In this document: piece by piece, positions 22,649 through 40,483 of the stretch | Layout of the letters: each line of letters opens with the position of its first letter | Position numbering within the stretch: position 1 is the stretch's first letter | Origin: a virus | DNA length: 64,000 bases | IMG/VR virus record: IMGVR_UViG_3300045988_068528 | Span: 1 to 64,000 of that record | Reading direction: 5' to 3' (one strand) | Notes under the pieces: generated by a model | What the model saw: the letters and a program-made list of their open reading frames with translations, nothing else | The model's database searches: none | Told to the model about the DNA's origin: nothing | Position numbers and translations under genes: made by a program

Positions 22649-22871
22649 ATTGTTTGCGCTTAACCGTGTTGCGTAGGGCTTGGTTATTAATTGCAGGAGC
22701 CGAAGCTCCCTATTTTTGGCTAATCGGGGCCGTTTTAAAAATCCCCTCCTACCCTCACGGGCAAGAGGGGACGAAACACTTTTTTAACACGCCCGTATGG
22801 CCGATAGCGCAGCCTCATTTTTATTATGAAAAATATCTTTGGCAGGGAGTATTGCTACTCCCCGGGTTTGG

Positions 22872-23240
22872 CTAGTTGCCGTTAAAGATTACCTGGAATG
22901 GAATCGCAAGTTTGTCGGTATCAAGCGGAACCTCGCATTTGATTCCGTAGATAGAATCAAGATGGCCCAGGGCATATACCTGCAAGCTCATCTTCTCCTT
23001 GAACTTCTCGATGCTGTCATACTCGCTCTCCAAAACGATGTCTGAAGGGAACTCCTCAAAGTCTTCCATCTCATCAACATAACGCTCGTTGAGCATTCGA
23101 AGCTCGTTAGCGAAATCGTCGTACGTCTTGATCTTGTACTCAGCCGCATCCTTCCAAACATCAAGAAGCTCCTGCTTGAATTTCTCCTCACACTGCTTCT
23201 TTCCTTCTTCCATCAAATTCTCTGAAATTCCTGCTAACAT
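22872..23240 (-). CDS. acidic hypothetical protein
   Basis: 122-aa ORF preceded by the cassette. Confidence 0.55.
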   Translation of the reverse strand: MLAGISENLMEEGKKQCEEKFKQELLDVWKDAAEYKIKTYDDFANELRMLNERYVDEMEDFEEFPSDIVLESEYDSIEKFKEKMSLQVYALGHLDSIYGIKCEVPLDTDKLAIPFQVIFNGN

Positions 23241-23251
23241 AATTCTATAAT

Positions 23252-23560
23252 TTATTGGTTAATACTATCTATCAGTAAATCTGTGAGCTGGGTAGCCGAA
23301 AACCAAGGTTCGAAGCGCACCTTTCTTCTAATGAGCTCCTTCTTGATGATTTCGGATACGCAAGAAACTTCCTTTTCAAGTTTTTCTGCCTTGCGCTCTG
23401 CCTGTCCCTGTTCTATCATCGCTCTGTACGTATCTTCTACATCGCAGATGCCAGAGAGCTTATCGAGTCGCTTTTTAAGTTTAACGTTCTCTCCTACCAG
23501 CTGACCTCTGCTCATATTTTCGAGTCTTTCTCTGTATGCTCGTTCTTCTTCTCTTTTCAT
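23252..23560 (-). CDS. coiled-coil hypothetical protein
   Basis: 102-aa ORF. Confidence 0.55.
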   Translation of the reverse strand: MKREEERAYRERLENMSRGQLVGENVKLKKRLDKLSGICDVEDTYRAMIEQGQAERKAEKLEKEVSCVSEIIKKELIRRKVRFEPWFSATQLTDLLIDSINQ

Positions 23561-23595
23561 TATTCCTCATATTAGTTAATAATAGCAGGAGATGG

Positions 23596-24636
23596 CTATT
23601 GGCCACCTCCAGTTTGGCTTAGTTCCTCATCGGGCTCGTCGTCGTCCTTATCATAGACTCCGAATAGCTTGAGGGTGTTGCTGTCGATTTCCGTCTTTCC
23701 GACGATGTAGCGCATCGTCATCTGAATGTTTGGCTTACCGTTGCTGGTATGGCCCATCATGACGGCAATCTGTTCCAATGGTACGCCTTTCTTGGAGAGA
23801 TTCGTGGCGAACGAACGTCTGCCGGTGTGCGAAGAGATGAAGCGGTACTTCTTTCCGGTCTCCTCCTTTCCAGCCTTGAATACCTTCGTGTTCGCATCTA
23901 TTCCGCATTCACGGCAAATGTCACGAAGAGTTCGGTTGAAGGTCATCTCGCTGATTTCGCCAGGGAGAGGCTCTGGGCCCGTGCCGCATACCAGGAACGG
24001 ACGGAGCTTCTTGTGGAGAGGAACCCTTACCTCCGTCTTGGTCTTCTGTGACACATACACCAGGAAGTGCCCGGTATCATCGATGTTCTCAGGAGTTATC
24101 CTCTGGCAGTCGCTGTAGCGCGCACCGCAGAGGCATTCCATGAGAAACATGCGCTGAACATATCTCTTTGTTTGTCCTCTTGGATTGTAATTTATGATTC
24201 TGTTTATCTCCTCATCCGAGAGATAGACGGACTGTACGGGCACGGCCTTCGTTCTGAGTATCTTTCCGAACGTCGGGCTGTTGATCTCCTTTGTAGCATC
24301 GTTCTCACGTATGACCGCCTTGATGGTGGCGCATACGGTCTTTGCGGAATTTGGAGCGTAGTTCTCCTTGATCTTCTCGAAGAGGTCACGGAGGTTGTCG
24401 TCGGTGATGTCTTCCCACAATGGCTTGTGGCCCAACAGCTCCTCGAACATTCTCACGACCTTGATGAACTTCGGATACTTCCAGATGTAAGCTCCGTAGA
24501 AGGTGTTGTGCCTCCACGCGTTGTCGTGATAGTTGGCGAACCAGCCCTGCTTGATAGCGAGCTTGTACTTCTCCTGCTGAACAGGACTCAGCAGACGCTC
24601 CCAGTCTCTAGTCTTGATTCTTATTTCTTCTGTCAT
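23596..24636 (-). CDS. second tyrosine recombinase (integrase-family)
   Basis: 346 aa. The C-terminus shows SSHTGRRSFATNL...MMGHTS...TMRYI (R, H-x-x-R, Y). Confidence 0.85.
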   Translation of the reverse strand: MTEEIRIKTRDWERLLSPVQQEKYKLAIKQGWFANYHDNAWRHNTFYGAYIWKYPKFIKVVRMFEELLGHKPLWEDITDDNLRDLFEKIKENYAPNSAKTVCATIKAVIRENDATKEINSPTFGKILRTKAVPVQSVYLSDEEINRIINYNPRGQTKRYVQRMFLMECLCGARYSDCQRITPENIDDTGHFLVYVSQKTKTEVRVPLHKKLRPFLVCGTGPEPLPGEISEMTFNRTLRDICRECGIDANTKVFKAGKEETGKKYRFISSHTGRRSFATNLSKKGVPLEQIAVMMGHTSNGKPNIQMTMRYIVGKTEIDSNTLKLFGVYDKDDDEPDEELSQTGGGQ

Positions 24637-24719
24637 AATTCTAATATTTTGGTTACTAGTGGCAAAGATACTAAAAGTTTATAATATAAACCATCATCTT
24701 TGCCGTTTTTAACGCTAAT

Positions 24720-25238
24720 TTAACCTTCCGAAGCGGTCTGTTTCTCGACTGATACGAGTTTTAGGGTAGAGCCCTTATGGTCATTCCACGCACGCATGTA
24801 GTCTTCCGCCTCATCCAATGCATCTTTATATGATTCTGCCCGGAATACGTACGGATTCTCCTTAGGAATGAAAATTCCATCATTGTAGGCAATCTTATAC
24901 TTTGCAGCATAGACACCAATATAGCCGTTCAGCTCATCGTTCAGACTAGTAGCGATGTCTGCAAGAAGGTCAACGGGTATATCGTCATCTGTAGCTTTTG
25001 CTTCCGGGAATTCAAACCCTATAGAAGTGCATCGGCTATGAATGATAGGGATAGCCGTATCGCTGCCGCCTACCTCTACTATGTTCACCTCCCTGTTGTC
25101 GTCGGCACGTACAGACCAATCGAACACCTTTCTGCTCACATTTTGCTCTCTCATTATCTCACGGATGGTGCATGCAAGTTCCATCTTTGCTGTTGAACGC
25201 AACTCATCAATCTTGTCTTTCAGTACTTTTCTATCCAT
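24720..25238 (-). CDS. hypothetical protein (start at MDRKVLKD)
   Basis: The cassette spacing supports ATG 25238. Confidence 0.55.
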   Translation of the reverse strand: MDRKVLKDKIDELRSTAKMELACTIREIMREQNVSRKVFDWSVRADDNREVNIVEVGGSDTAIPIIHSRCTSIGFEFPEAKATDDDIPVDLLADIATSLNDELNGYIGVYAAKYKIAYNDGIFIPKENPYVFRAESYKDALDEAEDYMRAWNDHKGSTLKLVSVEKQTASEG

Positions 25239-25295
25239 AATCTTAATATTTTGGTTTAACTTGATGCCCACCGTTTTCCGGCAGGCTTGTTTGGC

Positions 25296-25868
25296 TTAGT
25301 CTTTTCTTTCGATATCTAGGCCCGTAAGCACGCCTTTCATATAGGCTAATGTCTCTTCCTTGCATTCCGATAGAAACTTCTGGCATCCATCAATGATAAC
25401 GCCGTACTTACCGCTCGGATAATTCTGTAGAGAGCACGAGTGGTAATGCTTTCCGGATTTCTCCTCGATTTCTCCTGCGAGTCGCTTCCCTTCGTCGGTC
25501 TCATTTGGACGATTTTCTGGGTACTCATCGTAAAAATACTCGTGCCATAAATCTAGTAGCATATCCTTGCAATCCTCCATATCTTGCAAAATATCCGATA
25601 ATTTGTATGGCGCGCCGTTAGTACCATGTCCATCCTCGCCAATCCATTTACTGGCTTCCTCGTCAGGATCGAAGTCGCTATAATATTGATACAACTTATC
25701 CATGAAGTCAGACTTATTGCCATTCTCGAACCAAATTGTGGCGATGAAATCTTGGTCTTGTGGGGAATACTTCTCTAACTCGACGCAAACCTCACCTCTT
25801 TCGTTAGGTGTATCGTCAACATTATAACTCCAGTCTAATTCCTCAGCTAATTTTAAAAAATCATTCAT
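25296..25868 (-). CDS. strongly acidic hypothetical protein
   Basis: 190-aa ORF rich in D/E and aromatic residues. Confidence 0.6.
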   Translation of the reverse strand: MNDFLKLAEELDWSYNVDDTPNERGEVCVELEKYSPQDQDFIATIWFENGNKSDFMDKLYQYYSDFDPDEEASKWIGEDGHGTNGAPYKLSDILQDMEDCKDMLLDLWHEYFYDEYPENRPNETDEGKRLAGEIEEKSGKHYHSCSLQNYPSGKYGVIIDGCQKFLSECKEETLAYMKGVLTGLDIERKD

Positions 25869-25933
25869 ATTTTTAATTTTAATTGGTTAATACTAGGAGC
25901 GTGAAACAATAATGTTCCACGCCTTGTTCGGCT

Positions 25934-26356
25934 TTAAACCGGCAGAGACACGATATATTCCTTCTTCTTCTTTCGTGTTCTGCCCGTGACAGAATATCCG
26001 CAGATGTTTCTCAGAGAGAGAGCGGCTTCCGTCAGAAAAGGCTCGTTGACAAAGATTATCGGTTTCATCATATTATTCCGTACCATAAACTGATAGTCGA
26101 TGAAGTCGAATGGGTCGTTGGGGTCTTCCGATTTCTTCTTCCAGATGCTTATGTCCAGCATTTCAATGAAGTCTCCCTCTGGTGGATTGTCCATATCAAG
26201 GAATCTCTTCGGGAGAAGCAAAATTGTTTCCTTTGGTTCGTGTGTCAAAAAGAAATCTGAAACAACGCTACAGAATATGTTTAGATTAAACACCTTCGGC
26301 TTCAAGCCCTTTGCCTTCAAAATATCATTAACGTTAATGATTTTTGTTATTGCCAT
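25934..26356 (-). CDS. hypothetical protein
   Basis: 140-aa ORF. Confidence 0.55.
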   Translation of the reverse strand: MAITKIINVNDILKAKGLKPKVFNLNIFCSVVSDFFLTHEPKETILLLPKRFLDMDNPPEGDFIEMLDISIWKKKSEDPNDPFDFIDYQFMVRNNMMKPIIFVNEPFLTEAALSLRNICGYSVTGRTRKKKKEYIVSLPV

Positions 26357-26387
26357 AATTCAAAATTTTAATTGGTTAAACATTGTT

Positions 26388-26407
26388 CCCCGTCATTCCT
26401 GACGAGG
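26388..26407 (-). promoter_or_regulatory. cassette hairpin (example with strand-specific wobble)
   Basis: In the minus sense CCUCGUC/GACGGGG pairs with one U-G wobble. In the plus sense the same position is a C-A mismatch. Confidence 0.6.
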
Positions 26408-26414
26408 ATTTTGG

Positions 26415-27119
26415 CTAGTGTGCAAGAAATCCTACCGCCTGGCCCTTGCCGATGGACCAGCATAGTCTGTCTTCCTTCAGGCATTCTGTGCAGTTTCCGG
26501 TACATAGACGTGTTCCTTCCGGAGCAGACGTTCCGCTCTCGAAGATAGGATGCGCTTCTGGAAAACCGTGGCGGTTGTCCATATTGAGACCAAGCCATCC
26601 GCTGAATAGGATGTGCATGTTCTCGGGAATGACGTTTCCATCATCGATGTACTCGTTACATACATCGAACATTTTGGTGAACGCCAGGAACTTGGCATCC
26701 TTATGCTTGCGAGCAATCTCGCACATCTTGTCAAGATACCATTTGTTCTGTATGTCGCCACCGATGTGGAATCTGAATGCTCTAGGGAATCTGTAGTCGA
26801 GATACCCGTCAATCTCCTTGAAGTATCGTTCGGGATCCTCGTGGTAGATTGCAGAGTTGATAGCTCTCGTCTTGATAACCTCTTTATAGATGAAGTCGTT
26901 GCGAAGGTCGTAGCAGCTCTTCGCACAGATTGCACAGTTGCCGCAATCCATGACCGGGATAAGTGACAACGAAGGGATTGCTCCCAACTTTGTATTACCA
27001 TCACTGATCTTGACGTGCAAGTCGCTGACGTTCTCTACTGCATCCTCATAAGCTGCCTGTGCCTTTGAAAGACGCGTCCTCATTCCTTCCTTACCTAATG
27101 TCCAGTAATTTCTACTCAT
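26415..27119 (-). CDS. Cys-rich protein resembling the phage GP88 family (putative Fe-S or metal-binding protein)
   Basis: It shows DCGNCAICAKSCY followed by FRFHIGGD and FLAFTK, plus a C-terminal CTGNCTEC. The resemblance is from memory. Confidence 0.5.
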   Translation of the reverse strand: MSRNYWTLGKEGMRTRLSKAQAAYEDAVENVSDLHVKISDGNTKLGAIPSLSLIPVMDCGNCAICAKSCYDLRNDFIYKEVIKTRAINSAIYHEDPERYFKEIDGYLDYRFPRAFRFHIGGDIQNKWYLDKMCEIARKHKDAKFLAFTKMFDVCNEYIDDGNVIPENMHILFSGWLGLNMDNRHGFPEAHPIFESGTSAPEGTRLCTGNCTECLKEDRLCWSIGKGQAVGFLAH

Positions 27120-27249
27120 AATCCTAATTTAATTGGTTAAACTTGGGGAACAAAAAACCGGCGTGTCTCACGACAGACCGGCTTGAACCATTTAAACAAA
27201 ATCTAGTTATGATAAGGAGTCAGCCGCTGCTAACGACTGACCTGTTTGG

Positions 27250-27678
27250 CTAATCTACGTCCTTTAGGACATTCCAGTTGAAAGTCACGATAGCCTCGTT
27301 GTCATCAAGTTCAAACGAGATGATGAGTTGCTGGCCTTTCCTCTGTTCATCGATGTACTGCTTGAATCTCGGGAATAAGGATGAGTGGATCATCTCAAAT
27401 GCGTTTCCTGTAAGATTCTTTACGATTGTACTGGTGAATAAATCGATGTCTTCGCAAGTTCGCAATATCTGAGGAATACATTTTGCCGTGACGACATTTT
27501 CCTTGATGGTTGCCATCACGGGGAGTCCGGCGATGAATCCGAGATACACATTTCCATTGAATGAATAGTTCTCGTCATCAAACATATTCTCTTTCCACCA
27601 GTCAAGCATAACATTCTTGTTATCTAGAGGTGCAGGAACAAGGGAATTCACATCGATTTTCTCTTTAATCTCTTTCAT
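27250..27678 (-). CDS. hypothetical protein (start at MKEIKEK)
   Basis: The track ORF is 27250-27684. ATG 27678 fits the cassette spacing better. Confidence 0.55.
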   Translation of the reverse strand: MKEIKEKIDVNSLVPAPLDNKNVMLDWWKENMFDDENYSFNGNVYLGFIAGLPVMATIKENVVTAKCIPQILRTCEDIDLFTSTIVKNLTGNAFEMIHSSLFPRFKQYIDEQRKGQQLIISFELDDNEAIVTFNWNVLKDVD

Positions 27679-27793
27679 AATCATTCATTTTTGGTTAGAC
27701 ATAGAATCGGTTACCGAATCAGTAACCGACTTTTGGCTAGAATGGCTCCCGGCTGGCGCCTTACTATAAAAGTTCGATCGGAGAGCTTTAGCT

Positions 27794-27835
27794 CGAAGGA
27801 TTACCTCCAGTGAATGCACTGGAGGAGATCCTTCG
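27794..27835. other. strong two-tier hairpin (8 + 9 bp) in a 150-nt gap downstream of the 27896-28954 gene
   Basis: CGAAGGAT..CCTCCAGTG-aatg-CACTGGAGG..ATCCTTCG. No U-tract follows on either strand. Confidence 0.5.
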
Positions 27836-27895
27836 TTGCAGAAGCTATCGTAAAACATCTTTGCCGGGCCACCATACTACAAGCGGCGAACCTTA

Positions 27896-28954
27896 CTACT
27901 TACTGGCGATTACCTTCTCGACCTTATCCTTATGCCACTCGTTAATCTTGCCCTGGATGTCGATATCGTTCTCTATAATGAGCTGCTTGAGAACACCGAG
28001 CATTCTCCAGCCCTGCTCATCATAGAGCTTTGCTTTAGACTCAAGCTCCTTCAACGAGTTGGCCTCTGACATCTTCCGTCCGTTTTTCCAGAATCTGGCT
28101 CCGTGGAACATAATGAGGTTTCTCATCGTGTAGTAGGAACCAGAACCTTTGTAGGCATTGATGAAAGCATCTGATTGCTTGGTTTCCCATGCGAGATGCT
28201 TGCGCTTCTTGTTGAACTTGTGAACTGCATCATAGAGCTGCTTGTATGTAGGGACAGCCGCCATCTCGTTAGCAATCTCTCTGAGAGGTGTGTAGACTTT
28301 CTTTTCCAAGTCGCTGACAAAGATATCCTTGTTCTGAAGACGTACGTAAGGATTACCCTTGCAGGTGTGCTTGAAAGATTTCGTCTTCTTTCCGTCCTTG
28401 TCTTTCTTCCAGATAAGATTGTCATCCACGTACTTGCGGAGCTTGCTGATGTAGTCAGTAGCCATGTTGCTGGCAACGTCTCCGCTAAACCATCGGCTTC
28501 TAGAACCGACATTATCAAAGTCTCCGTGCTCAGACATCTTTACCTGAGCATAGAGTTCGTTCTCCAACATGCGCCACTGGTACTCGTAGCCCTTGTGCTG
28601 TAACACCTCGTTGAATGACTTGCCGTCCTTCTCCATGTCTCGCAACATGTGGAACATCTGCGACATCACCCAGCGGCGGAACAACTTCCAGTTGTTTACG
28701 TATCCACCCTCGACAATCTTCTTGCCTACCGCATCGATGGTTGCATCGTCCATGTCTACAGGAACCGCTGCACCATTCTCGATCTTGATAAGCTGGTCAT
28801 TTCCGAGAGGGAAGTACTTGCTCACGTCAACACCTGCTGCCTTCAGAGCTTCGAGACGCATCTGTGCCTTGGTCTTCTTGGTAGCTGCTGTAGCCTCTAC
28901 ATTGCTAGTTACGATGTTCAAGTTTTCTCCAGTGATTGTTACAATCTGCTTCAT
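27896..28954 (-). CDS. hypothetical protein
   Basis: 352-aa ORF. Confidence 0.65.
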   Translation of the reverse strand: MKQIVTITGENLNIVTSNVEATAATKKTKAQMRLEALKAAGVDVSKYFPLGNDQLIKIENGAAVPVDMDDATIDAVGKKIVEGGYVNNWKLFRRWVMSQMFHMLRDMEKDGKSFNEVLQHKGYEYQWRMLENELYAQVKMSEHGDFDNVGSRSRWFSGDVASNMATDYISKLRKYVDDNLIWKKDKDGKKTKSFKHTCKGNPYVRLQNKDIFVSDLEKKVYTPLREIANEMAAVPTYKQLYDAVHKFNKKRKHLAWETKQSDAFINAYKGSGSYYTMRNLIMFHGARFWKNGRKMSEANSLKELESKAKLYDEQGWRMLGVLKQLIIENDIDIQGKINEWHKDKVEKVIASK

Positions 28955-29010
28955 AAATTCTATTATTTTAATTGGTTACTAAAAATTTATTTAACTCTAG
29001 TGGATGAGGC

Positions 29011-29463
29011 TTACGCCCCACCCTTGTTTGGCTCAATCCAGTCTCTAAGGATAATCAGGTCCTTGTCGTTCTTGGAACGCCAGAACCACGTTCCCCATGA
29101 GTTATCCCACCAGAGGTTGCCTTTGAGTAGCTGAATCAGTACGTACAGCTCCAGCTTGCATCTCGCTACCTCTCGTCGCTCTCCGTACATCATATCTTCG
29201 TCTGAGAGCTCTTTCTCGGGCAAGGCCTTGAAGTAGTGCCGGCGATGTGATTCGGAGCGTTCTGACGGTACAGAATGCTTGTACGCTGCGTATCTCTGCT
29301 CGATGCCAACAAACACAACCTCGGGTGTAAGGTAAGGCGTGTCCTTCGGCTTGTCTTCCTCGGACATTACTACCTTGCCATTTACACGGCATGTTCTCTT
29401 CTGAAAGTTGATGGTGAACTTAGCACCATTCTCAACTGAATTGATGATTTCTTCGTATGTCAT
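29011..29463 (-). CDS. hypothetical protein
   Basis: 150-aa ORF. Confidence 0.6.
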   Translation of the reverse strand: MTYEEIINSVENGAKFTINFQKRTCRVNGKVVMSEEDKPKDTPYLTPEVVFVGIEQRYAAYKHSVPSERSESHRRHYFKALPEKELSDEDMMYGERREVARCKLELYVLIQLLKGNLWWDNSWGTWFWRSKNDKDLIILRDWIEPNKGGA

Positions 29464-32633: not shown

Positions 32634-32643
32634 ATGATAGATG

Positions 32644-33051: not shown

Positions 33052-33104
33052 AATTCTTAATAATTTATTGGTTAATAATGCCAGAGGGATTGCTCCCTCC
33101 GTTT

Positions 33105-33362: not shown

Positions 33363-33409
33363 AATTCTCTGTATTTGGTTATTGGTAGGTAGCCAACTGG
33401 CTACCAATT

Positions 33410-33742: not shown

Positions 33743-33791
33743 AATTCTTTGTAATTTGGTTAATGGAAGAGGAGCATGCAAGCTCCCCTTG

Positions 33792-34646
33792 TTAGGCTGC
33801 ATCTTTCGGCTGTAAGCCGTGTTCTTTGATAACCTCTTCGATGAGGCCATCAGCATCTTCGAAGTACTCTCCCCAGCAGGAATCAATCTCCTCCCAGTCG
33901 TAGGAGTCAGAAGTGTCTCCGTCGTCGTACATTTTAGTGTAATGACGCTTCTTTTCAAGGACAAATCCTTTTACGTCACCCCACATCCATATACCAATAT
34001 CCTTGACTTCGCTCTCAAACAGCTCGATGGCACGATTCTTCCAGTTCTTGGTATTCGTATCCACCATCTTCTTGAAGCGCTCTTTGTCACAATAGGCAAC
34101 ACCTTCTACGTAGTCTCCCTGGCAGTATCCTGTGGAAGACCACTCGTATATCACGATTTCGTAAGCTATGTCATCAAGCAGCCAGATCAAGTCCTCGTTG
34201 TTCATAGGCTCAATCATCTCTGCTCTCATGTCATAGTTCTTGATTTCGTCAGGAGTGAACTCTACCGAAGTCTTGTACGCCTCTCTGCTGTAGTAATAAT
34301 CAAGTTCCCATACATGAGAGCTTCTATCATACGATAATTTAGCAGAGCGGTGCTTGTTGCTCTTCAGATATTTTACAAGACGATTCTGCGGAACATACTT
34401 GTATACAAGCTCACGGAGAGCATCCTGCAAGCTGTGGTCGTTTGTGTCGTATTTTCTATCATATATTTCATCCCAGTTGCAGCCGTTACTTAATCTTCCA
34501 CTACCACAACTGGTATACTCCCAAAGATACACACCTGCCAAATCCCATGCAGAGCAAGGCGATTCAGCATCCTCATCCTGGTAAATGGTGATTCTGTAAT
34601 CACCGATTTCCTTCTTTGCAAATTCGTAACTCATATCTAATATCAT
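33792..34646 (-). CDS. acidic hypothetical protein
   Basis: 284-aa ORF. Confidence 0.6.
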   Translation of the reverse strand: MILDMSYEFAKKEIGDYRITIYQDEDAESPCSAWDLAGVYLWEYTSCGSGRLSNGCNWDEIYDRKYDTNDHSLQDALRELVYKYVPQNRLVKYLKSNKHRSAKLSYDRSSHVWELDYYYSREAYKTSVEFTPDEIKNYDMRAEMIEPMNNEDLIWLLDDIAYEIVIYEWSSTGYCQGDYVEGVAYCDKERFKKMVDTNTKNWKNRAIELFESEVKDIGIWMWGDVKGFVLEKKRHYTKMYDDGDTSDSYDWEEIDSCWGEYFEDADGLIEEVIKEHGLQPKDAA

Positions 34647-34689
34647 TTAAATGGTTTAACATTGAATATCCCCATGCTAGGGGATATTT

Positions 34690-35259
34690 TTAGGCTAATG
34701 TTTCCTCAAGAAGAGAATCATACTCTTCCTCTGTAACACCAAGATCGTCAGCGCTCATCACCTGTTTAAGCATCCAAGGATAAACTTTCTGCTTTCCCTC
34801 GCGCTCGGCAATATACTCGTCTATTGCGCACACGATATCAAGGTCTGATGATATATCGACATCACATCTATCTGGCACATCTGAGAATCCTCTCGTAACT
34901 GGAAACTCAAATGAGAATCCCTCTGCAATATCAGGCATAGGAATATCGGAATCAGGATTCTGTTTCCATGCGTTGAAAACCGAGGCATATTCTTTCTGCC
35001 ACTTGCAATACTCTTCGTAATCGTATGCGTGAGCCGTCACGTGACCATTCTCCTCGCTGATTGTCAATTCTACAGCATAAGGGAAATCGGTTGAATAATA
35101 CGGCTTACAGAAAGCGCGACTTGAATACATACACTTGAATGTGTCAATCCAATCACACACTTTGCAATCTATATCGGTCTTGTCCTCTATAGAATCTGCA
35201 TACTCATTAATCTCCTTGACTGTAAGCTTGTACTGAATCTTGTAAAATAGCTTTTCCAT
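34690..35259 (-). CDS. acidic hypothetical protein
   Basis: 189-aa ORF. Confidence 0.6.
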   Translation of the reverse strand: MEKLFYKIQYKLTVKEINEYADSIEDKTDIDCKVCDWIDTFKCMYSSRAFCKPYYSTDFPYAVELTISEENGHVTAHAYDYEEYCKWQKEYASVFNAWKQNPDSDIPMPDIAEGFSFEFPVTRGFSDVPDRCDVDISSDLDIVCAIDEYIAEREGKQKVYPWMLKQVMSADDLGVTEEEYDSLLEETLA

Positions 35260-35311
35260 AATTCATCTGTTTAATGGTTCATAATGGTTCCCCACATTAT
35301 CGTGGGGAGTT

Positions 35312-35551
35312 TTAGGCAGAAACAACGAAACTCCAATAGGTTTTGTAGAAATACTTGTACGCTTCAAGCTCGTCCGTCTCTGGAACTTCTGATATTTCAA
35401 GCTTTCCGGTGTCCTTGCGTAAGTCGGCAACGGAAAATAAACCGTCGTGCGTCCACTTGATAAGATCCACACGTCTTGCTGAATTCTCTACAGACTCGAC
35501 GATTTCACACTTCAGCAAATCGTCATTCAAAATTTTCTCTAAGTCACTCAT
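35312..35551 (-). CDS. small hypothetical protein (start at MSDLEKI)
   Basis: Cassette context. Confidence 0.55.
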   Translation of the reverse strand: MSDLEKILNDDLLKCEIVESVENSARRVDLIKWTHDGLFSVADLRKDTGKLEISEVPETDELEAYKYFYKTYWSFVVSA

Positions 35552-35614
35552 AATTCTGTAATCTTTGGTTAATAGAAATCCCAATTCCTGCTACAGAATT
35601 GGGAAATGTTTGGC

Positions 35615-35839
35615 TTAGAGCTTGTCGATATTCCAGTGTTCTATCTGAAACTCGTAGTCTCGATTGCTCGTACACTGCGACTGCATAATATCTCTCAGCT
35701 GTCTTACCTGCTCGTTAGTCGCTCCTTTCCAATGCGCCGCCCAACAGCATTTTTCTACAGAACTTCCTACAAATACCACCTCCATACTATTTGAGGAGTG
35801 CCAGCTGTCACATTTGTATAAAATATAGATTTCTTTCAT
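35615..35839 (-). CDS. small hypothetical protein
   Basis: 74-aa ORF. Confidence 0.5.
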   Translation of the reverse strand: MKEIYILYKCDSWHSSNSMEVVFVGSSVEKCCWAAHWKGATNEQVRQLRDIMQSQCTSNRDYEFQIEHWNIDKL

Positions 35840-35847
35840 AAGGCGAA

Positions 35848-36003
35848 TTAATTATAATTACACATTATTTCTGTCTCACTGATAATTTCAGCACAATGCT
35901 TGCAGCGATGGCACATTATGTAGCCTTTTGCCTGTAATTTGCTGAACTTCGGGTATGGGCATTTCTCACCCATACCGGCTCTCGTAATCTCAATTTTAAT
36001 CAT
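35848..36003 (-). CDS. small zinc-ribbon-like protein (start at MIKIEIT)
   Basis: It has CPYP...CHRCKHC cysteine pairs and the cassette context. Confidence 0.5.
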   Translation of the reverse strand: MIKIEITRAGMGEKCPYPKFSKLQAKGYIMCHRCKHCAEIISETEIMCNYN

Positions 36004-36061
36004 ATTCAATCTGTATTGGTTAATAGAAATCCCCACCCGTGAGAGTGAAGATTGGTTTGGC

Positions 36062-36265
36062 TTAATACAGAAGAGCTCTGAAACAAAGCTTGTCGCTTAT
36101 TACACCATCTTTCTGTAGCCCGTCCTTCCAGTCATTGAAAGTCATGTTCAAGTCAAGGTTGAACTTTGTCTTCTTGCCAGTGTAGTCGATACCACACTCG
36201 TCGCAAAACTGCCAGAATGCTTCACGAAGCTGCTTCTGGTTTGTGATCTGATATTTATTCGCCAT
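36062..36265 (-). CDS. small hypothetical protein
   Basis: 67-aa ORF. Confidence 0.55.
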   Translation of the reverse strand: MANKYQITNQKQLREAFWQFCDECGIDYTGKKTKFNLDLNMTFNDWKDGLQKDGVISDKLCFRALLY

Positions 36266-36299
36266 AATTCAAATAATTTATCTTGGTTAAACAATAGAA

Positions 36300-36323
36300 G
36301 GCACGCTCAGACATGGGCGCACC
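36300..36323 (-). promoter_or_regulatory. cassette hairpin (example with two strand-specific wobbles)
   Basis: In the minus sense GGUGCGC/GCGUGCC pairs with two G-U wobbles. In the plus sense these are two C-A/A-C mismatches. Confidence 0.6.
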
Positions 36324-36337
36324 TTTTTAGGCAAATA

Positions 36338-36595
36338 CTACTCTTCTTCATCTTCATCCTCTTCCTCTTCTTCGTCTTCGTCAAGACAATAATAGCTGTC
36401 AATCTCATCTGTGCCGGAGTAGCCTTCATCTTTACACTGCTCGTAACTGCGTAGTCCTGTCTTGGCATAAATAATGTCTGTCATCGTTTCCTCGTTCAAG
36501 CCATTTATATACGAGACAAGTCTAACCTCGTCCTCTGTGGCGATATTGTTGTCAACAATGAAATCCCACAGCATAGCCTCAATACTTTCTTTCAT
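36338..36595 (-). CDS. small protein with a poly-acidic C-terminal tail
   Basis: 85-aa ORF ending DEDEEEEEDEDEEE. Confidence 0.55.
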   Translation of the reverse strand: MKESIEAMLWDFIVDNNIATEDEVRLVSYINGLNEETMTDIIYAKTGLRSYEQCKDEGYSGTDEIDSYYCLDEDEEEEEDEDEEE

Positions 36596-36653
36596 ATCCT
36601 TTGAATATTTAGTTAATAATAGCTCCCACGTGTCTCCACGCAGGATTTTTGGC

Positions 36654-37058
36654 TTAATAGAGATACTTGTCTGTGTTCACTCCAAGGATATAGGCGAGTT
36701 CAAGCATCTTCTTTGCTATATTCTTGAACCAGTCTCCCACAAAATTGTGGTCATGGCATTTCCATAACTTTCCAATCTGCTCGATGTCGTAATCCGCAAA
36801 CGCTATGTTTACGGTACTACACAACCCTTGGAGCCAGTCTGTAAGCAGACTAAGACGTGATAATCTACGCTTGTCGTTCTTTACCATCTCCTCGTGGAAC
36901 ATCTTGAATGCGAACTCGATTTTCATCTTGTCGCTCAAGACGCTGACATCTACGTCGTTGGAGTGGATGGAATCCAATATATATGAATACCATTTCATAT
37001 TCTGCTCACTCATCTCGGCAGCTGTTCTGATAGCTGCAATTTCCTGTTTTTCGTTCAT
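36654..37058 (-). CDS. hypothetical protein (start at MNEKQEI)
   Basis: Cassette AGAATTATG context. Confidence 0.55.
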   Translation of the reverse strand: MNEKQEIAAIRTAAEMSEQNMKWYSYILDSIHSNDVDVSVLSDKMKIEFAFKMFHEEMVKNDKRRLSRLSLLTDWLQGLCSTVNIAFADYDIEQIGKLWKCHDHNFVGDWFKNIAKKMLELAYILGVNTDKYLY

Positions 37059-37118
37059 AATTCTCATTTTTATGGTTCAACATGGTTTCTGCGCAGATAG
37101 GCTGCACAGAATGTTTGG

Positions 37119-37295
37119 CTAGAATTTGCGAGGGCGCATATAGGCACGCTCGATCTCCTGAGCTTTTCTGTCCACTCGTGCCGTACGTCTGAAATACTCG
37201 CTCTTGTCGAGTTTCTTTCTCGCACACTCCTCGCTGATAACCGCCTTGTGACTCGCTACGAGCCTTGCAAGGAATCTTCTGTCTCCGTCTGTCAT
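37119..37295 (-). CDS. small basic hypothetical protein (58 aa)
   Basis: Hand translation gives MTDGDRRFLARLVASHKAVISEECARKKL... It is flanked by cassettes and is below the track cutoff. Confidence 0.45.
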   Translation of the reverse strand: MTDGDRRFLARLVASHKAVISEECARKKLDKSEYFRRTARVDRKAQEIERAYMRPRKF

Positions 37296-37340
37296 AATTC
37301 TGATTTTGATTTGGTTAATAATTGGAGGCGTAGCAAATAA

Positions 37341-37505
37341 CTACGCCGGGTCTGGTCTAAAGCTGTACGTAAGAAGCCACTCGCAATTTAAGGCACTGTG
37401 GAAATCCCTTGCGGCTCTCTCTCCCCATCCTCGTGGTTTGTATGCGTCTTCTTTCAAATACTTCTCTACAAGCTTCTCTAGCTGAGTCTTTTCTTCTGCT
37501 GTCAT
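37341..37505 (-). CDS. small hypothetical protein (start at MTAEEKT)
   Basis: Cassette context. Confidence 0.5.
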   Translation of the reverse strand: MTAEEKTQLEKLVEKYLKEDAYKPRGWGERAARDFHSALNCEWLLTYSFRPDPA

Positions 37506-37562
37506 AATATATTCTGTTTTGGTTAATAGCAGGCAGCACATTATCGTACTGCCCAGTTCTGG

Positions 37563-37832
37563 CTAGAGATTGTACAGCGGGCTTTCGGAAGCATACAGAA
37601 TCGTAGGACCGGTGAGGATGGAGAATGCACAAGGGTCGAAACTTTCGATTTTCTTCATGCTCTCGATATGCTTCTGAATTTCTGCTCGTATGGATGACAG
37701 ACTCAATCTGCCATCAACTGGCAAGATAGAATCCATACCAGTCATTTCCACGATACTGAAATCATCTGTAAATCTCATGTTCACAAGGTCAAACTTGTTA
37801 ATCTTGTGATAAAATTGTACCCATTTACTCAT
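37563..37832 (-). CDS. small hypothetical protein
   Basis: 89-aa ORF. Confidence 0.55.
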   Translation of the reverse strand: MSKWVQFYHKINKFDLVNMRFTDDFSIVEMTGMDSILPVDGRLSLSSIRAEIQKHIESMKKIESFDPCAFSILTGPTILYASESPLYNL

Positions 37833-37881
37833 AATTCTACATTTTTGGTTTATAGGAGAGGGAGAAATAACTCCCTCAAAT

Positions 37882-38157
37882 TCAGGCTGTGTGCTCCTTG
37901 ATGAAATCCGTGAGATCTGCTAACTCGGAATCAATTTCCTCACGGCTATCTACGCAGGACAGATTTAGATAAAGGGCATCATCGACGGAAACATTTGTAT
38001 ACACGGAAATATATTCTCCTTTTTTGCCCACGCTTATCTCGAAGATCAGCTTCTCGTTACCAAACAAGTCACGCTGCATCTCCTGCAATCTAGGCAGGAC
38101 CACCTTGCGCAGATAGTCTCTGCACTCTTCCCATTTAGGGTACTCTAATTTCTTCAT
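37882..38157 (-). CDS. small hypothetical protein (start at MKKLEYP)
   Basis: Cassette context. Confidence 0.55.
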   Translation of the reverse strand: MKKLEYPKWEECRDYLRKVVLPRLQEMQRDLFGNEKLIFEISVGKKGEYISVYTNVSVDDALYLNLSCVDSREEIDSELADLTDFIKEHTA

Positions 38158-38206
38158 AATCTTAAAATATTGGTGAATAGTATGCGTGACAATCGCCACG
38201 CACATT

Positions 38207-38383
38207 TTAGCCCATGCACAGCACCGCTATCTCCGAGAAACTTTTGGAGATAGCCTCCTTGCTACGATAATCTCTGTAGCCTCTAGTATTGTTGTTGTGC
38301 CACTGGCGTGCAGCAATTTTAATTTTCTCCATCTCGTGGAGCAATGCACGTTCGAAGTTCTTTTGTGATTTTCTGTCTTGCAT
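38207..38383 (-). CDS. small hypothetical protein (start at MQDRKSQ)
   Basis: Cassette context. Confidence 0.5.
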   Translation of the reverse strand: MQDRKSQKNFERALLHEMEKIKIAARQWHNNNTRGYRDYRSKEAISKSFSEIAVLCMG

Positions 38384-38445
38384 AATTCTTCCGTTTAAAT
38401 GGTTTAACATAGTATGCCCAGGAAAATGCCTGAGCACATTTTTGG

Positions 38446-38775
38446 CTACTCGTACTTGTTGAGCATGAAAATCATAATAACACCATCGCCATTCTGGAGA
38501 GTCTGGCACTTGTTCTCGTCATTCATTATGCTTTCGCATATTCTCTCAAAGAACGGATATGGGTCTCCGTCAATACTCTTGTAATACCATGCCATGTACG
38601 TACCAGGGATGAGAGGATAAGAATCCTCAGGATCTCCGCCGAATACGTCACACGCCTGTGTATCAATCAGAACACGACGTACAGAGAAATTGCCCTCAAC
38701 TTCCTGTGCGTCCATTCCACGCAAGAGGTCGATAACCTCATTCTTGCTCAAATCTTGCTTTAATATTCTATCCAT
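38446..38775 (-). CDS. hypothetical protein
   Basis: 109-aa ORF. Confidence 0.55.
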   Translation of the reverse strand: MDRILKQDLSKNEVIDLLRGMDAQEVEGNFSVRRVLIDTQACDVFGGDPEDSYPLIPGTYMAWYYKSIDGDPYPFFERICESIMNDENKCQTLQNGDGVIMIFMLNKYE

Positions 38776-38837
38776 ATTTCTCTAATAATTTGGTTAATAC
38801 TAGATACCGCCCGAATATCTCCAAGCGGTAGTTTTGG

Positions 38838-39047
38838 CTAGTCACAGATATCCTCTATCTGCTGATGGATGGCATCTATCATTATGCAGATAATAAATAG
38901 ACCGCACATTTCAAGAACCGCAGAATATAAAACGGCTTGAAAATCTCCAAGCACAAATCCTACGATGGCAATGAAACCACATACGAAACTTGTAACTAAT
39001 ACGAGCGCAGCAGATAGCACGCCCTTTCTTACGATATACTTTTCCAT
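38838..39047 (-). CDS. small membrane protein
   Basis: 69 aa with two hydrophobic helices. Confidence 0.55.
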   Translation of the reverse strand: MEKYIVRKGVLSAALVLVTSFVCGFIAIVGFVLGDFQAVLYSAVLEMCGLFIICIMIDAIHQQIEDICD

Positions 39048-39149
39048 AATTCTCTTGTTTAACTGGTTATATTATCGTACTGCCTGGATTCCTCCAAGCA
39101 GAATTTAGGTAAATGTTTCCAAGCACAATTATCGTACTTTCCAAATCTC

Positions 39150-39383
39150 TCACGCTCCAGGCAGTACGAAACTTTCCAAGCGGAGCGTGGATCGCCACAG
39201 CTCACGGAAATACCACTTGCCCTTTTTCGTACTGCTCCAAATATTCACAAGCAGAATTCCGTAAAGAATTCCAAGCAGAATTACGATAATATTCGTACTT
39301 GCCAAGCAGATGAATATTGGCGATGTCTGAATAAATCCAAGCACAATTATCGTACTTGAATAAATAATCTGTCTTGCTTTCAT
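39150..39383 (-). CDS. small membrane protein (start at MKARQII)
   Basis: It has the cassette context and internal IIVLG-type repeats. Confidence 0.5.
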   Translation of the reverse strand: MKARQIIYSSTIIVLGFIQTSPIFICLASTNIIVILLGILYGILLVNIWSSTKKGKWYFRELWRSTLRLESFVLPGA

Positions 39384-39448
39384 ATCTATATTTAATTGGT
39401 AATTGTTCCGTAGCCACACACGACAATTATCGTACTGGCTACGGATTT

Positions 39449-39577
39449 TTAGGCTAGAAACAGAGCTAGAGTATTATTGCGCCACGAGATAAACTCCACA
39501 CGATTGTATATGGTCTGTCTGTCTGCAATAATTCTCTCCATCATTCTCTGTCCTCTGCAATCGAAATTCTGTATCAT
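39449..39577 (-). CDS. small hypothetical protein (42 aa)
   Basis: Hand translation gives MIQNFDCRGQRMMERIIADRQ... The stop lies inside a GCCTAAAA motif and a cassette lies upstream. Confidence 0.4.
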   Translation of the reverse strand: MIQNFDCRGQRMMERIIADRQTIYNRVEFISWRNNTLALFLA

Positions 39578-40440
39578 AATCTATATGTTTAAATGGTTTG
39601 TAATTGTAGGGCGGAGATTTCTCGCCGCCCCGTTAGCCAGGATGTGCATCTTTGCACCACGTTTTATCTTTATCGTCTTAACTACGTGGCTCACACCCTA
39701 CAGATTTTATGCTTCTGCCAGCAGCTTGTTTATTTCTGAGGAGATAAATCTCGCACGGATGACAAGCAACCGCTTTCAGAAAGTGTGTTTTATATTCGCC
39801 AGCCCACACTTTAAAAACTCTGGGCGAATATGATGTGCAGGAAAATCCCTACAACGGAAACCACTCCACGTGCCATCCAACACGTAGCCTTTCAGGATAT
39901 CTCGTATCCCTTAACCCGCAGCCAACGGGATAGAATATGAATTATGATTTCTTTCTAATTTCTCCCGGTACGCCTTATAATCACACTGCGCCCGTATCGC
40001 ACAACTTTCGTTCTGTCTCCATTCGTACCCTTGCCGTCGGTTAGCCTTCAATCCTCGCAAGGTCGTTTGACCGCCTCGCTCCTGTGCCTGTGCTCCCTGT
40101 GTCCGCTCCTGTGATACGCTCCACAGAAATCTCAGTCTCTTATATTCTGTTTCACGTATCACGGAGAGACACCGCTCGCCGCCGGTAGTTGGTACGTCTG
40201 AGGATGACCGCCCCAGTTGTGCCGCCTAAAAAATATTTCGTATGTTTCGCTAGATTTTCCGCTTGAAAATCTAACAGACAAGTTACGTTTTCAATTTTAG
40301 CCACAATTAAAAATTGTGTTTATCCTACATACCACGAAAAGGTATTGAAAAATAATGTAGGGAAAATTTATATTGAAACAATTCTGAAAAATAAATCTAA
40401 AAAAAATATTCTAGAAAAAATCTTTCTAGAATATAGGCAC

Positions 40441-40473: not shown

Positions 40474-40483
40474 TTATTTATTG

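Follow-up and report, generated by a model that had tools for sequence, protein, structure and literature searches.

Repeated hairpin-plus-leader cassettes at the gene junctions of an accessory array in a putative Bacteroidales phage

Background

Stable hairpins that lie between cistrons and act as stabilisers or processing sites are familiar from the REP/BIME elements of E. coli operons and from the early RNase III sites of phage T7. The PeSL elements of phage T4 combine a stem-loop with an expression signal (Arbiol, Comeau & Krisch 2010, PMC2839356; Comeau et al. 2014, PMC4122927). In the cluster K mycobacteriophages, the SAS and ESAS elements are associated with start codons; a role in translation initiation was proposed for SAS, the function of which is unestablished (Pope et al. 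2011, PMC3203893). Here we describe a repeated intergenic cassette of comparable architecture in a viral genome of the IMG/VR collection (record IMGVR_UViG_3300045988_068528, positions 1 to 64,000). This whole stretch of 64,000 nucleotides was analysed and is referred to as the window; all coordinates are window positions.

To our knowledge, the gene-expression signals of Bacteroidales phages are almost entirely undescribed, and the hosts of these phages do not use Shine-Dalgarno sequences. The window contains an array of mostly small genes on its minus strand, and the junctions between them are occupied by a cassette composed of a stop-codon motif, a hairpin, a conserved box and a short leader that ends at the next ATG. 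We propose, with a probability of about one half, that the cassette is an intercistronic hairpin-plus-leader module that would act at the level of RNA, and serve also as a recombination boundary, within a long operon transcribed by the host polymerase.

Number and anatomy of the cassettes

An earlier note on this DNA, made from the sequence alone, had counted about 32 copies of the cassette. Our own count is 32 cassette-bearing junctions, consecutive and all on the minus strand, between 23,238 and 39,630 (Table 1), to which are added one orphan unit (22,646-22,723) and one terminal hairpin without a box (22,844-22,874). The anatomy was defined from pooled logos of 400-600 copies of the wider family and reads, in coding sense, as follows: (i) (T)AGCC(A/T)AAA; (ii) a stem of 5-12 bp with a loop of 3-10 nt (3 nt in 21 of 465 family hairpins), starting 0-3 nt past the A-run; (iii) 2-8 nt and then the box, (A/T)TTAACCAA(A/T); (iv) a G-poor A/T spacer; and (v) AGAATT-ATG. 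The box starts 20-27 nt ahead of the ATG (mode 21), its last base lies 11-15 nt before it, and ATG is the start codon of all 32 cassette genes. No ORF (open reading frame) lies upstream of the first cassette, which has a hairpin and a box, and the last gene is followed by GCCAAAC and a hairpin with no box.

The motif GCC(A/T)AAA, which the earlier note placed at the stop codons of nearly every junction, is present in a loose form at 23 of the 32 window junctions. It is the least constant part of the cassette, the exact form GCC[AT]A[AC] occurring in 45% of 568 family junctions. Where this form does occur, it holds the upstream stop codon in 81% of the cases, in the registers TAG-CC, TAA-GCC and GCC-TAA. 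The box is strongly concentrated: TTAACCAWW has 13 minus-strand copies in the array and one elsewhere, compared to an expectation of 2.45 for the whole window, and a total of 14 was reached in none of 100 shuffles. With up to one mismatch, TTAACCAA has 33 minus-strand and 4 plus-strand matches in the array. Apart from the reverse transcriptase (RT) and the integrase, the 31 proteins encoded in the array gave four Pfam and two PHROG family matches in all.

This distribution bears on the suggestion that the boxes are stoperator-like DNA sites, at which the prophage repressor or another protein would block the elongating polymerase in lysogens. About 30 asymmetric sites in short intergenic gaps, oriented with transcription, in a temperate phage with an S24/helix-turn-helix (HTH) repressor module, agree with such a role. 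The sites are nevertheless confined to one array instead of being genome-wide, and the box was not found in the host-type promoter and immunity regions: neither the promoters of the immunity region (14.3-16.7 kb) nor the array-facing minus-strand promoters at 41,177 and 41,450 have a match with one mismatch or less, and the 41.1-42.3 kb hub contains, as its sole near matches, two plus-strand copies of TAAACCAA (41,829 and 41,886). Moreover, the box is tied to an ATG and to an RNA hairpin with a coding-sense wobble asymmetry (see below). We therefore consider the stoperator idea, as raised in the earlier note, very unlikely.

The 11-mer ATTATCGTACT, reported in the earlier note from five positions, is present at all five, and its copies are part of a 22-nt dispersed repeat in 39,090-39,440. 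In coding sense the repeat reads AAGTACGATAATTGTGCTTGGA; its five copies lie in and around a doubtful 77-aa hydrophobic ORF and look like amplified fragments of one junction hairpin.

Folding, strand and termination at the junction hairpins

The 45 nt upstream of the boxes fold with a mean of -14.3 kcal/mol, compared to -7.4 kcal/mol for random 45-mers of the array (Mann-Whitney p=4e-16), and 26 of the 32 window junctions fall below the 5th percentile of this control. The stem sequence differs at every junction and the pairing is kept, as had been claimed. A hairpin is found at most junctions rather than at all of them: 29,484 and 23,263 are without a convincing one. An ungapped stem finder gave no stem of score 5 or more at 39,400, 29,484, 27,141 and 25,259, at three of which minimum-free-energy (MFE) folding does yield a hairpin.

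Examination of the imperfect positions, using the ungapped finder in a strand-blind manner to count transition-type mismatches, shows that the window hairpins contain, in coding sense, 201 Watson-Crick pairs, 17 G:T and 2 A:C. In 339 family hairpins the raw counts are 175 G:T and 15 A:C, and among 83 dissimilar hairpin types that remain after de-replication they are 38 and 16 (p=0.004), so that the asymmetry persists but is smaller than the raw counts would indicate. The stem finder reproduced four of the five wobble hairpins listed in the earlier note; in place of the fifth (38,416-38,435) it took a neighbouring stem, and that hairpin is seen in the MFE fold. In alignments of orthologous junctions there are 753 G-U cells versus 92 A-C cells, and the folds are 1.66 kcal/mol more stable in coding sense than in antisense (p=2e-15). 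The loops follow the same trend. Of 135 family tetraloops, 59 are GNRA and 21 UNCG; after de-replication, five of ten tetraloops belong to these classes in coding sense and none in antisense. The two GNRA loops noted previously, GTAA near 32,317 and GCAA near 33,090, are both present. Since G:T exceeds A:C and the loops include GNRA and UUCG, selection appears to act on the coding-sense single strand, again as first proposed. This supports the view that the hairpins act as folded coding-sense RNA, although the strand asymmetry by itself fits one DNA strand equally well.

The hairpins are not ordinary terminators, in agreement with the original observation. Only 17 of 465 family stems (3.7%) have TTTT in the 9 nt on their 3' side, whereas canonical hairpin-plus-T terminators do occur elsewhere in the phage (approximately 40,445-40,479, 27,158-27,183 and 22,737-22,771); for this reason the junction hairpins look as if selected against termination. 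Within the window, the T-tract typical of intrinsic terminators accompanies the hairpin at 27,141 (T6) and the one at 22,737-22,771.

Several other candidate classes were rejected. Antisense terminators, suggested by TTTWGGC after the hairpins on the plus strand, were ruled out by the stem mismatches and loops, which favour the coding strand. Antisense promoters were dismissed, as plus-strand TAnnTTTG occurs at four junction-related sites only, where it is a by-product of CAAAnnTA. Hairpin promoters of the N4 type, which are read by a virion polymerase and have a 5-7 bp stem with a conserved 3-nt loop, are at odds with the heterogeneous loops and unique sequences seen here, and no polymerase domain was found.

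The leader segment and translation initiation

When the family junctions are anchored on the ATG, the logo displays A-3 (0.82), A-4 (0.79), A-6 (0.75), T-1 (0.92) and A-12 to A-14 (0.70-0.85), with G at 0.1 or below from -16 to -6. In Flavobacterium johnsoniae, ribosome profiling and reporter mutagenesis identified A-3, A-6, A-12 and A-13, as well as an A-run from -14 to -11, as positive determinants of initiation, and Bacteroidia ribosomes ignore Shine-Dalgarno sequences (Baez et al. 2019, PMC6847099). The cassette logo fits this Shine-Dalgarno-independent signature (A-3, A-6, A-12/-13, ATG start, low structure). At the modal spacing, the adenines at -14 to -12 are contributed by the CAAA end of the box. 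The predicted unpaired probability from -25 to +5 is 0.60 at array junctions, 0.505 for non-array genes and 0.44 within coding sequence. Non-array genes of the window show a weaker version of the signature (RRATT-ATG, A at -11 to -14) without TTAACC.

The segment from box to ATG, 21-25 nt long, is close in length to the most common 5' untranslated region (UTR) of B. thetaiotaomicron, 23 nt; 3.7% of the 5' UTRs in this species are shorter than 10 nt (PMC7366714). Given that the leader has the length of a normal Bacteroides 5' UTR, TTAACCAA(A/T)...AGAATT may represent a self-contained leader for Bacteroidia ribosomes, on which each small gene would be initiated independently without a Shine-Dalgarno site.

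The same length would result from a cut before the box, and the cassette might accordingly be an RNA-processing signal. An endoribonuclease of host or phage would then read the single-stranded (T)AGCCWAAA and/or AUUAACCAA beside the hairpin and yield monocistronic mRNAs, in the manner of the T7 early RNase III sites or of hairpin-guided RNase Y; this amounts to a variant of the proposed module in which cleavage is obligatory. The two conserved single-stranded motifs around a structure of free sequence are in line with such a signal, as are the CCAAA common to both motifs and the hairpins found at the first cassette, with no gene upstream, and after the box-less last gene, as if hairpins bounded every mRNA. 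Against it, no nuclease gene was recognised in the array, GCCWAAA is missing in more than half of the family junctions, and stems of 5-12 bp are, by textbook standards, too short for RNase III. We know of no specificity established for RNase E, G or Y in Bacteroides, which also counts against this interpretation. On balance we find it rather improbable.

Transcription of the array

The claim that no junction carries a host-type promoter box holds for all junctions except that of the integrase (24,657), and in the family TAnnTTTG occurs in 12 of 520 junctions. At the integrase junction TATCTTTG precedes TAACCAAA by 7 nt, and a spacing of 7-9 nt between the host -7 box and AACC is found both in the window and in six relatives with the same arrangement (L008, L009, L017, L024, L043 and L056). 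By promoter geometry, the integrase mRNA would begin approximately at the box, which at this junction is probably the mRNA 5' end.

Directly upstream of cassette 1 lies a structured non-coding leader (39,574-39,787), 93-95% identical in about ten relatives and 78-79% identical in two more, compared to about 85% for the flanking genes. Its Alifold structure has 48 pairs, of which 10 show a compensatory change (all in one diverged clade), together with many sense-strand G-U pairs; it gave no match in Rfam. This leader could be a cis-acting element, e.g., an antitermination or regulatory RNA for the array. Since a conserved, structured leader with sense G-U pairs adjoins cassette 1, transcription probably enters the array from upstream. 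No exact TAnnTTTG promoter was found between 41,177 and 39,600, where only weak candidates are evident, such as TATTTTTT near 40,245, which parallels TACATTTG in the relative L100. A scan for E. coli-type promoters and terminators is uninformative for this host.

The chief rival explanation is that the cassette is a terminator-promoter unit of the PeSL type, in which the hairpin would end or pause the upstream transcript and TTAACCAA would form the core of a phage-specific promoter. The box would be read either by the host polymerase, under the direction of an unrecognised phage factor, or by a phage polymerase that escaped recognition. Each gene would then have its own short-leader mRNA, initiated a few nucleotides downstream of the box. 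The strict conservation of the box, its strand specificity and its semi-fixed distance before every gene are what a promoter would display, and both the architecture and the gene shuffling parallel the T4 PeSLs (PMC2839356, PMC4122927). In addition, two canonical terminators have a box behind them (at 27,141 and, for the orphan unit, at 22,745), the orphan unit has no upstream ORF, which implies that a cassette can stand alone, and the region just upstream of the array yielded no exact host promoter. It is on account of the two terminators and the missing host promoter that we retain this explanation as the main alternative.

Several observations nonetheless speak against it. The junctions lack the TTTG...TAnnTTTG host promoter, and no RNA polymerase or sigma Pfam domain was found among the proteins of this 64-kb stretch of a temperate siphophage, so that one promoter per gene would call for an unrecognised phage factor and is disfavoured. 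Leaders shorter than 12 nt would be implied, which is difficult to reconcile with the scarcity of very short 5' UTRs in B. thetaiotaomicron, and the A-12 to A-14 determinants would fall outside the mRNA. At the integrase junction a host promoter right upstream of the box makes a second promoter redundant. The rarity of T-tracts after the hairpins is the opposite of what insulated transcription units would favour, and the 20-27 nt spacing between box and ATG is variable. We thus regard a promoter role as unlikely.

The region upstream of the leader has features of its own. A gene for a 185-aa protein (40,484-41,041, minus strand) is served by the host-type promoter at 41,177 and by a canonical terminator (40,445-40,479). 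Its product, encoded in every case directly ahead of the array leader, is syntenic and fast-evolving among relatives (173-185 aa, with a Lys/Ala-rich tail; 28% identity to the L100 counterpart) and has no match in Pfam, NCBIfam, PADLOC or the PDB. Just past this terminator is a perfect palindrome, TCTAGAAAGATTTTTTCTAGA (40,405-40,430, minus strand), which could be an operator-like site. Between the terminator and the G+C-rich array leader, a candidate HDV-like self-cleaving ribozyme (40,288-40,361, minus strand) spans the full RF02682 model (1-74) with 38.3 bits, below the gathering score of 44 (E=6e-6 in 251 nt), and six relatives gave no such match.

Distribution among gut phages and gene exchange

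The motif is widespread in related phages. The box-plus-AGAATTATG pattern occurs in at least 119 IMG/VR contigs, most of them human-gut viral genomes of 50-90 kb, and dozens of retrieved loci hold 8-19 cassettes each, on one strand only. A scan of 185,579 species genomes for the box-ATG pattern returned mostly single chance matches and one 18-kb contig only, binned as 'Firmicutes CAG:103', with 8 cassettes, an outcome that does not identify the host. No description of the motif was found in the searchable literature, where the motif string matched primers only.

The cassettes are boundaries of gene gain, loss and permutation among these phages, again in line with the original proposal. Of 208 unique end points of homology with relatives, 126 lie within -60 to +30 of a box, compared to 17% expected, a figure to be read with the caveat that end points concentrate at gene borders in any mosaic phage and that alignments extend through shared motifs. 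Homologues of the array proteins are found in 1 to 45 related loci, the gene content varies by unit, and the order of the units is permuted in L108. The clearest case is a 291-bp unit (35,556-35,846), absent from L077, L043 and L008, in which the flanking genes abut as TAATCTATAATTATG. The unit consists of a 74-aa ORF (35,839-35,615), GCCAAAC, a hairpin, a box and AGAATT, and its junctions fall at AATTATG and TAA. What is gained or lost here is an ORF together with its 3' cassette, which is what insertion of a gene without silencing the next one would need.

Within the array, the 27,896-32,074 region (minus strand) harbors a complete UG27 reverse-transcriptase system, each protein gene of which has its own cassette. 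The RT is the most conserved gene of the array, with homologues in 45 loci at a median identity of 97%. In gut viruses, roughly 1,400 genomes of which carry the system, UG27 comprises the RT, two partner proteins and a non-coding RNA; the passages on UG27 in the paper concerned do not mention junction cassettes (Mestre et al. 2022, PMC9226505).

The exchange of ORF-plus-cassette units raises the question of site-specific recombination. In the earlier note, the tyrosine recombinase inside the array was linked to cassette shuffling, and the hairpins might by this account be integron attC-like sites, recombined by that enzyme as folded single-stranded DNA. Small ORFs in one orientation, each followed by an imperfect palindrome and gained or lost with it, resemble such a system, and the strand asymmetry would equally fit one DNA strand. 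The link is not supported by the enzyme itself, which is not an integron integrase (20.2 bits to TIGR02249, against a cut-off of 265) and is encoded by a same-orientation cassette gene like the others. Furthermore, there is no complementarity between the flanks GCCWAAA and TTAACCAA and no conservation of the stem sequences, the reverse of attC; the box is tied to an ATG and a translation signature; the UUCG and GNRA loops suggest RNA; and the clean indel ends at AATTATG and TAA reveal no defined crossover core. Of all the explanations considered, we hold this one to be the least probable.

A model for cassette function

According to the hairpin-plus-leader model, transcription would start upstream of the structured leader and continue through the junctions. 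The stable, non-terminating hairpin would shield the upstream cistron from 3'-to-5' decay and would also keep the next initiation region from pairing with upstream coding RNA, leaving the box-to-ATG leader free for ribosomes. An endonucleolytic cut between hairpin and box is possible in addition and would leave each monocistronic mRNA with a hairpin at its 3' end and about 23 nt of leader. At the DNA level, 30-40 nt are shared by all junctions and all related phages and may on that account provide short homology for recombination, such that units of ORF plus cassette could be inserted without polar effects.

Several points weigh against this model. Read-through, stability and translation effects are all predicted from sequence. 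The wobble asymmetry drops to 2.4:1 on de-replication and is thus real but weaker than the raw counts imply, and double changes occur in 8 of 434 pairs, orthologous hairpins being too alike for true covariation. No exact host-type promoter was found for the array, and the two boxes that lie directly downstream of canonical terminators (27,141; 22,745, the orphan unit) imply that the genes behind them need a promoter, unless the terminators are leaky or antiterminated. Chance matches to the box-plus-AGAATTATG pattern fall at plausible gene starts in 24 of 57 cases in Bacteroidota, compared to 18 of 63 in other phyla, so that the exact pattern is no clear start signal of Bacteroidota genes in general. 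Finally, the invariant AACCA and the strong conservation of TTAACC go beyond a general A-richness and suggest recognition by a sequence-specific reader, for which the model has no candidate. Nor does the model explain why the TTAACC core is so strict or why (T)AGCC(A/T)AAA occurs at the stops, and either motif may bind a factor.

These last features admit a bolder proposal, which we put forward only tentatively and consider doubtful: box, hairpin and (T)AGCCWAAA together would be the site of a dedicated phage-directed expression system in Bacteroidales (a new promoter class read through a sigma-like or polymerase-redirecting factor, a sequence-specific endoribonuclease or a translational regulator) serving about 30 accessory genes together, and at the same time a portable 'plug'.

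The phage, its host and other features of the window

The window is a temperate tailed phage or prophage. It encodes an intein-bearing large terminase, an SPP1-type portal, a major capsid protein, a D5-type primase, two tyrosine integrases, the S24/HTH repressor module and five tRNAs. The portal protein is 43-44% identical to the portals of Bacteroides LoVEphage and the temperate phages BI-TP1 and PV4-TP1, and canonical Bacteroides promoters (TAnnTTTG, part of them with a -33 TTTG) are present at the main intergenic hubs. On these two grounds the host is almost certainly a member of the Bacteroidales. Judged from its sequence, the phage would be a temperate siphophage of Bacteroidales whose nearest named relative is LoVEphage, a relationship recognised through the portal only. 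The box was not found in the LoVEphage genome, and no close DNA match emerged when 10 kb of the array were compared by megablast with the GenBank phage collection. At gathering thresholds, Rfam identified tRNAs alone in the window and gave no match at the junctions.

Some further observations concern other parts of the phage. An intein with LAGLIDADG and Hom_end homing-endonuclease domains splits the large terminase (51,160-53,910, minus strand). For one of the five tRNA genes (11,522-11,593, minus strand), ARAGORN gives an undetermined two-base 'tc' anticodon. Six or seven genes in 2,100-14,300 (minus strand) have GGAGG-type Shine-Dalgarno boxes 6-10 nt before the ATG (including the ATGs at 2290, 3655, 8318, 9777, 10894 and 14281), a type of box that Bacteroidia ribosomes reportedly ignore. 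Both genes after the array (ATGs 22648 and 22347) are preceded by a second repeated leader, AAGCCCTA(T)CGCA(A/T)CACGG(T/C)TAAGCG...AATATG (22,646-22,690 and 22,345-22,385, minus strand).

Table 1. Features of the array and its junctions. Positions are those of the window, and elements of each junction are listed in coding sense.
Feature	Position	Strand	Details
Accessory-gene array with conserved leader	22646..39787	-	33 genes, mainly ORFans of 42-190 aa, plus UG27 reverse-transcriptase system and tyrosine integrase
Structured non-coding leader, including first hairpin and box	39574..39787	-	Directly upstream of cassette 1; L100 equivalent 4974-5190
Cassette 1	39575..39630	-	Hairpin 39630-39609, box ACAAACCATT at 39601, ATG 39577; no GCCWAAA, no upstream ORF
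Cassette	39381..39454	-	GCCTAAAAA, 10-bp hairpin, degenerate box ACCAATTAAA, ATG 39383
Cassette	39045..39101	-	Hairpin 39101-39080 (GGAA loop), box TATAACCAGT, AGAATT-ATG 39047
Cassette	38773..38838	-	TAGCCAAAA, hairpin 38830-38805, ATTAACCAAA, ATG 38775
Cassette	38381..38446	-	TAGCCAAAAA, hairpin, TTAAACCATT, AGAATT-ATG 38383
Cassette, variant box	38155..38211	-	GGCTAAAA, hairpin ATGTGCGTG/CACGCAT, TATTCACCAAT, AAGATT-ATG 38157
Cassette	37830..37887	-	GCCTGAA, hairpin 37877-37858, ATAAACCAAA, AGAATT-ATG 37832
Cassette	37503..37563	-	TAGCCAGAA, hairpin 37553-37532, ATTAACCAAA, ATG 37505
Cassette	37293..37347	-	Hairpin 37347-37327 overlapping stop codon, ATTAACCAAA, AGAATT-ATG 37295
Cassette	37056..37119	-	TAGCCAAAC, hairpin 37111-37087, TTGAACCATA, AGAATT-ATG 37058
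Cassette	36593..36653	-	TAAGCCAAAAA, hairpin 36645-36624 (GAGA loop), ATTAACTAAA, ATG 36595
Cassette	36263..36332	-	GCCTAAAAA, hairpin 36325-36298, TTTAACCAAG, GAATT-ATG 36265
Cassette	36001..36061	-	TAAGCCAAAC, hairpin 36053-36028, ATTAACCAAT, ATG 36003
Cassette	35549..35614	-	TAAGCCAAAC, hairpin 35604-35579, ATTAACCAAA, AGAATT-ATG 35551
Cassette	35257..35317	-	GCCTAAAA, hairpin 35308-35289, ATGAACCATT, GAATT-ATG 35259
Cassette	34632..34695	-	AGCCTAAAAA, hairpin 34688-34665, TTAAACCATT, ATG 34634
Cassette	33740..33797	-	GCCTAAC, hairpin 33790-33767, ATTAACCAAA, AGAATT-ATG 33742
Cassette	33360..33415	-	GCCTAAAA, hairpin 33405-33388, AATAACCAAA, AGAATT-ATG 33362
Cassette	33049..33110	-	AGCCTAAAAA, hairpin 33099-33084 (GCAA loop), ATTAACCAAT, AGAATT-ATG 33051
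Cassette	32560..32640	-	Compound stem-loop (inner stem 32612-32596), ATTAACCAAA, AGAATT-ATG 32562; no GCCWAAA
Cassette	32284..32335	-	TAGCCAAAC, hairpin 32327-32312 (GTAA loop), AATAACCAAA, ATG 32286
Cassette ahead of UG27 RT gene	32072..32125	-	GCCTAAAAA, hairpin 32116-32098 with upstream stop codon in loop, AATAACCAAA, AGAATT-ATG 32074
UG27 RT	30809-32074	-	PADLOC RT_UG27, E=3e-226
ORF-poor 1.1-kb stretch	29670-30808	-	Matches reported UG27 ncRNA (non-coding RNA) region
Box-only junction past UG27 non-coding region	29461..29493	-	ATTAACCAAT, AAGAAT-ATG 29463; no convincing hairpin
RTas346	29011-29463	-	
Cassette	28952..29032	-	GCCAAAC, hairpin 29023-29002 (GTAA loop), long spacer, AGTAACCAAT, ATG 28954
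RTas337	27896-28954	-	
Cassette	27682..27737	-	TAGCCAAAA, hairpin 27729-27707, TCTAACCAAA, ATG 27684
Junction with canonical terminator as hairpin	27117..27183	-	Stem ~27183-27158 then T6, TTTAACCAAT, AGGATT-ATG 27119; conserved in 12 orthologous junctions
Cassette	26354..26415	-	TAGCCAAAA, hairpin 26408-26387 (GGAA loop), TTTAACCAAT, GAATT-ATG 26356
Cassette	25866..25936	-	AGCCGAAC variant, hairpin 25922-25899, ATTAACCAAT, ATG 25868
Cassette	25236..25295	-	TAAGCCAAAC, 8-bp hairpin, TTAAACCAAA, AAGATT-ATG 25238
Integrase junction	24634..24705	-	Hairpin holding host-type -7 box TATCTTTG (24670-24663), 7 nt, AGTAACCAAA, AGAATT-ATG 24636
Cassette	23558..23618	-	TAAGCCAAAC, hairpin 23610-23588, ATTAACTAAT, ATG 23560
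Box-only junction	23238..23272	-	ATTAACCAAT, upstream stop codon within spacer, AGAATT-ATG 23240; no hairpin
3' end of last full gene	22844..22874	-	TAGCCAAAC and hairpin 22863-22844 (GCAA loop); no box after
Canonical terminator closing main array	22737..22771	-	G+C-rich hairpin then T5
Orphan unit without upstream ORF	22646..22723	-	TTAGCCAAAAA, hairpin GGGAGC-TTCG-GCTCC, TAATAACCAAG, 31-nt second leader, ATG 22648

Significance

The cassette is a compact natural module that apparently drives the independent expression of about 30 consecutive small genes. It lends itself to experimental study of initiation inside operons in Bacteroidia and is a candidate part for synthetic biology in Bacteroides. 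In UG27-carrying human-gut phages it can serve as a landmark for calling the starts and stops of tiny ORFs, many of them below 90 aa. The cassettes mark the seams along which accessory genes, probably of defence or counter-defence, are exchanged, so that turnover in an abundant gut lineage becomes mappable. If the box has a specific reader, this would be a new regulator; if a dedicated expression system exists, it would allow abundant human-gut phages to insert foreign genes without polar effects.

Comparison with known systems

Like the stoperators of cluster A phages (L5), as contrasted in PMC3203893, the boxes are about 30 asymmetric, transcription-oriented intergenic sites of a temperate phage, the stoperators measuring 10-13 bp. 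Unlike the boxes, stoperators resemble the operator at the early promoter and are distributed genome-wide; the present sites occur in one array, with none at promoters, and are linked to an RNA hairpin and a start codon.

With integron attC sites the cassettes share same-orientation promoterless ORFs, a palindrome after each and a stop codon often located in the first motif. In attC, the core sites RYYYAAC ... GTTRRRY (R''/R') form the base of the stem, whereas here the stems exclude GCCWAAA and TTAACCAA, which are in direct orientation, and the array has no IntI-type integrase.

The REP/BIME elements and the T7 early sites are, like the junction hairpins, stable non-terminating intercistronic stem-loops that set segmental stability or processed ends. 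REP elements keep a conserved sequence and have no fixed link to the following start codon, and the T7 sites are long RNase III substrates; the present stems are short, unique in sequence and fused to a conserved leader.

The initiation regions of Bacteroidia genes (PMC6847099) resemble the leader in A-3, A-6, A-12/-13, the A-run from -14 to -11 and low G content and structure. In the hosts these are statistical preferences only, as opposed to the near-invariant TTAACCAA and AGAATT found here in about 32 operon-internal copies.

The SAS/ESAS elements of cluster K (PMC3203893) also comprise an asymmetric conserved sequence just before the ATG, in a single orientation, with a strong preference for ATG starts and at non-structural genes only; they too are often preceded by an inverted repeat, and the upstream stop codon sometimes lies within the motif. 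There is no sequence similarity between the two. SAS is a 13-bp sequence, GGGATAGGAGCCC, with a Shine-Dalgarno core 3-7 bp from the start, whereas the present box has no GGAG and is 11-15 nt away. The 17-bp arms of ESAS are conserved in sequence and show no RNA pairing, as opposed to the variable, paired arms with coding-sense wobble described here.

The T4 PeSLs are likewise a stem-loop plus expression signal that brackets small ORFans; the end points of indels and replacements lie in the motif, and accessory genes are shuffled as modules. The present cassettes also sit between small, phylogenetically variable ORFs of a hyperplastic region. Circular excision products bounded by the motif are a further trait of the PeSL system. 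PeSLs, however, hold a host sigma-70 early promoter, and the cassettes have no host-type promoter save at the integrase junction; their conserved part resembles a translation leader, and they belong to a temperate siphophage of a Bacteroidales host. By analogy, the cassettes appear closest to the T4 PeSLs in function and evolution and resemble the cluster K SAS/ESAS elements, yet they lack defining features of each and would be members of neither group. They may best be described as a type of intergenic regulatory cassette of phages, suited to a host that does not recognise Shine-Dalgarno sequences.

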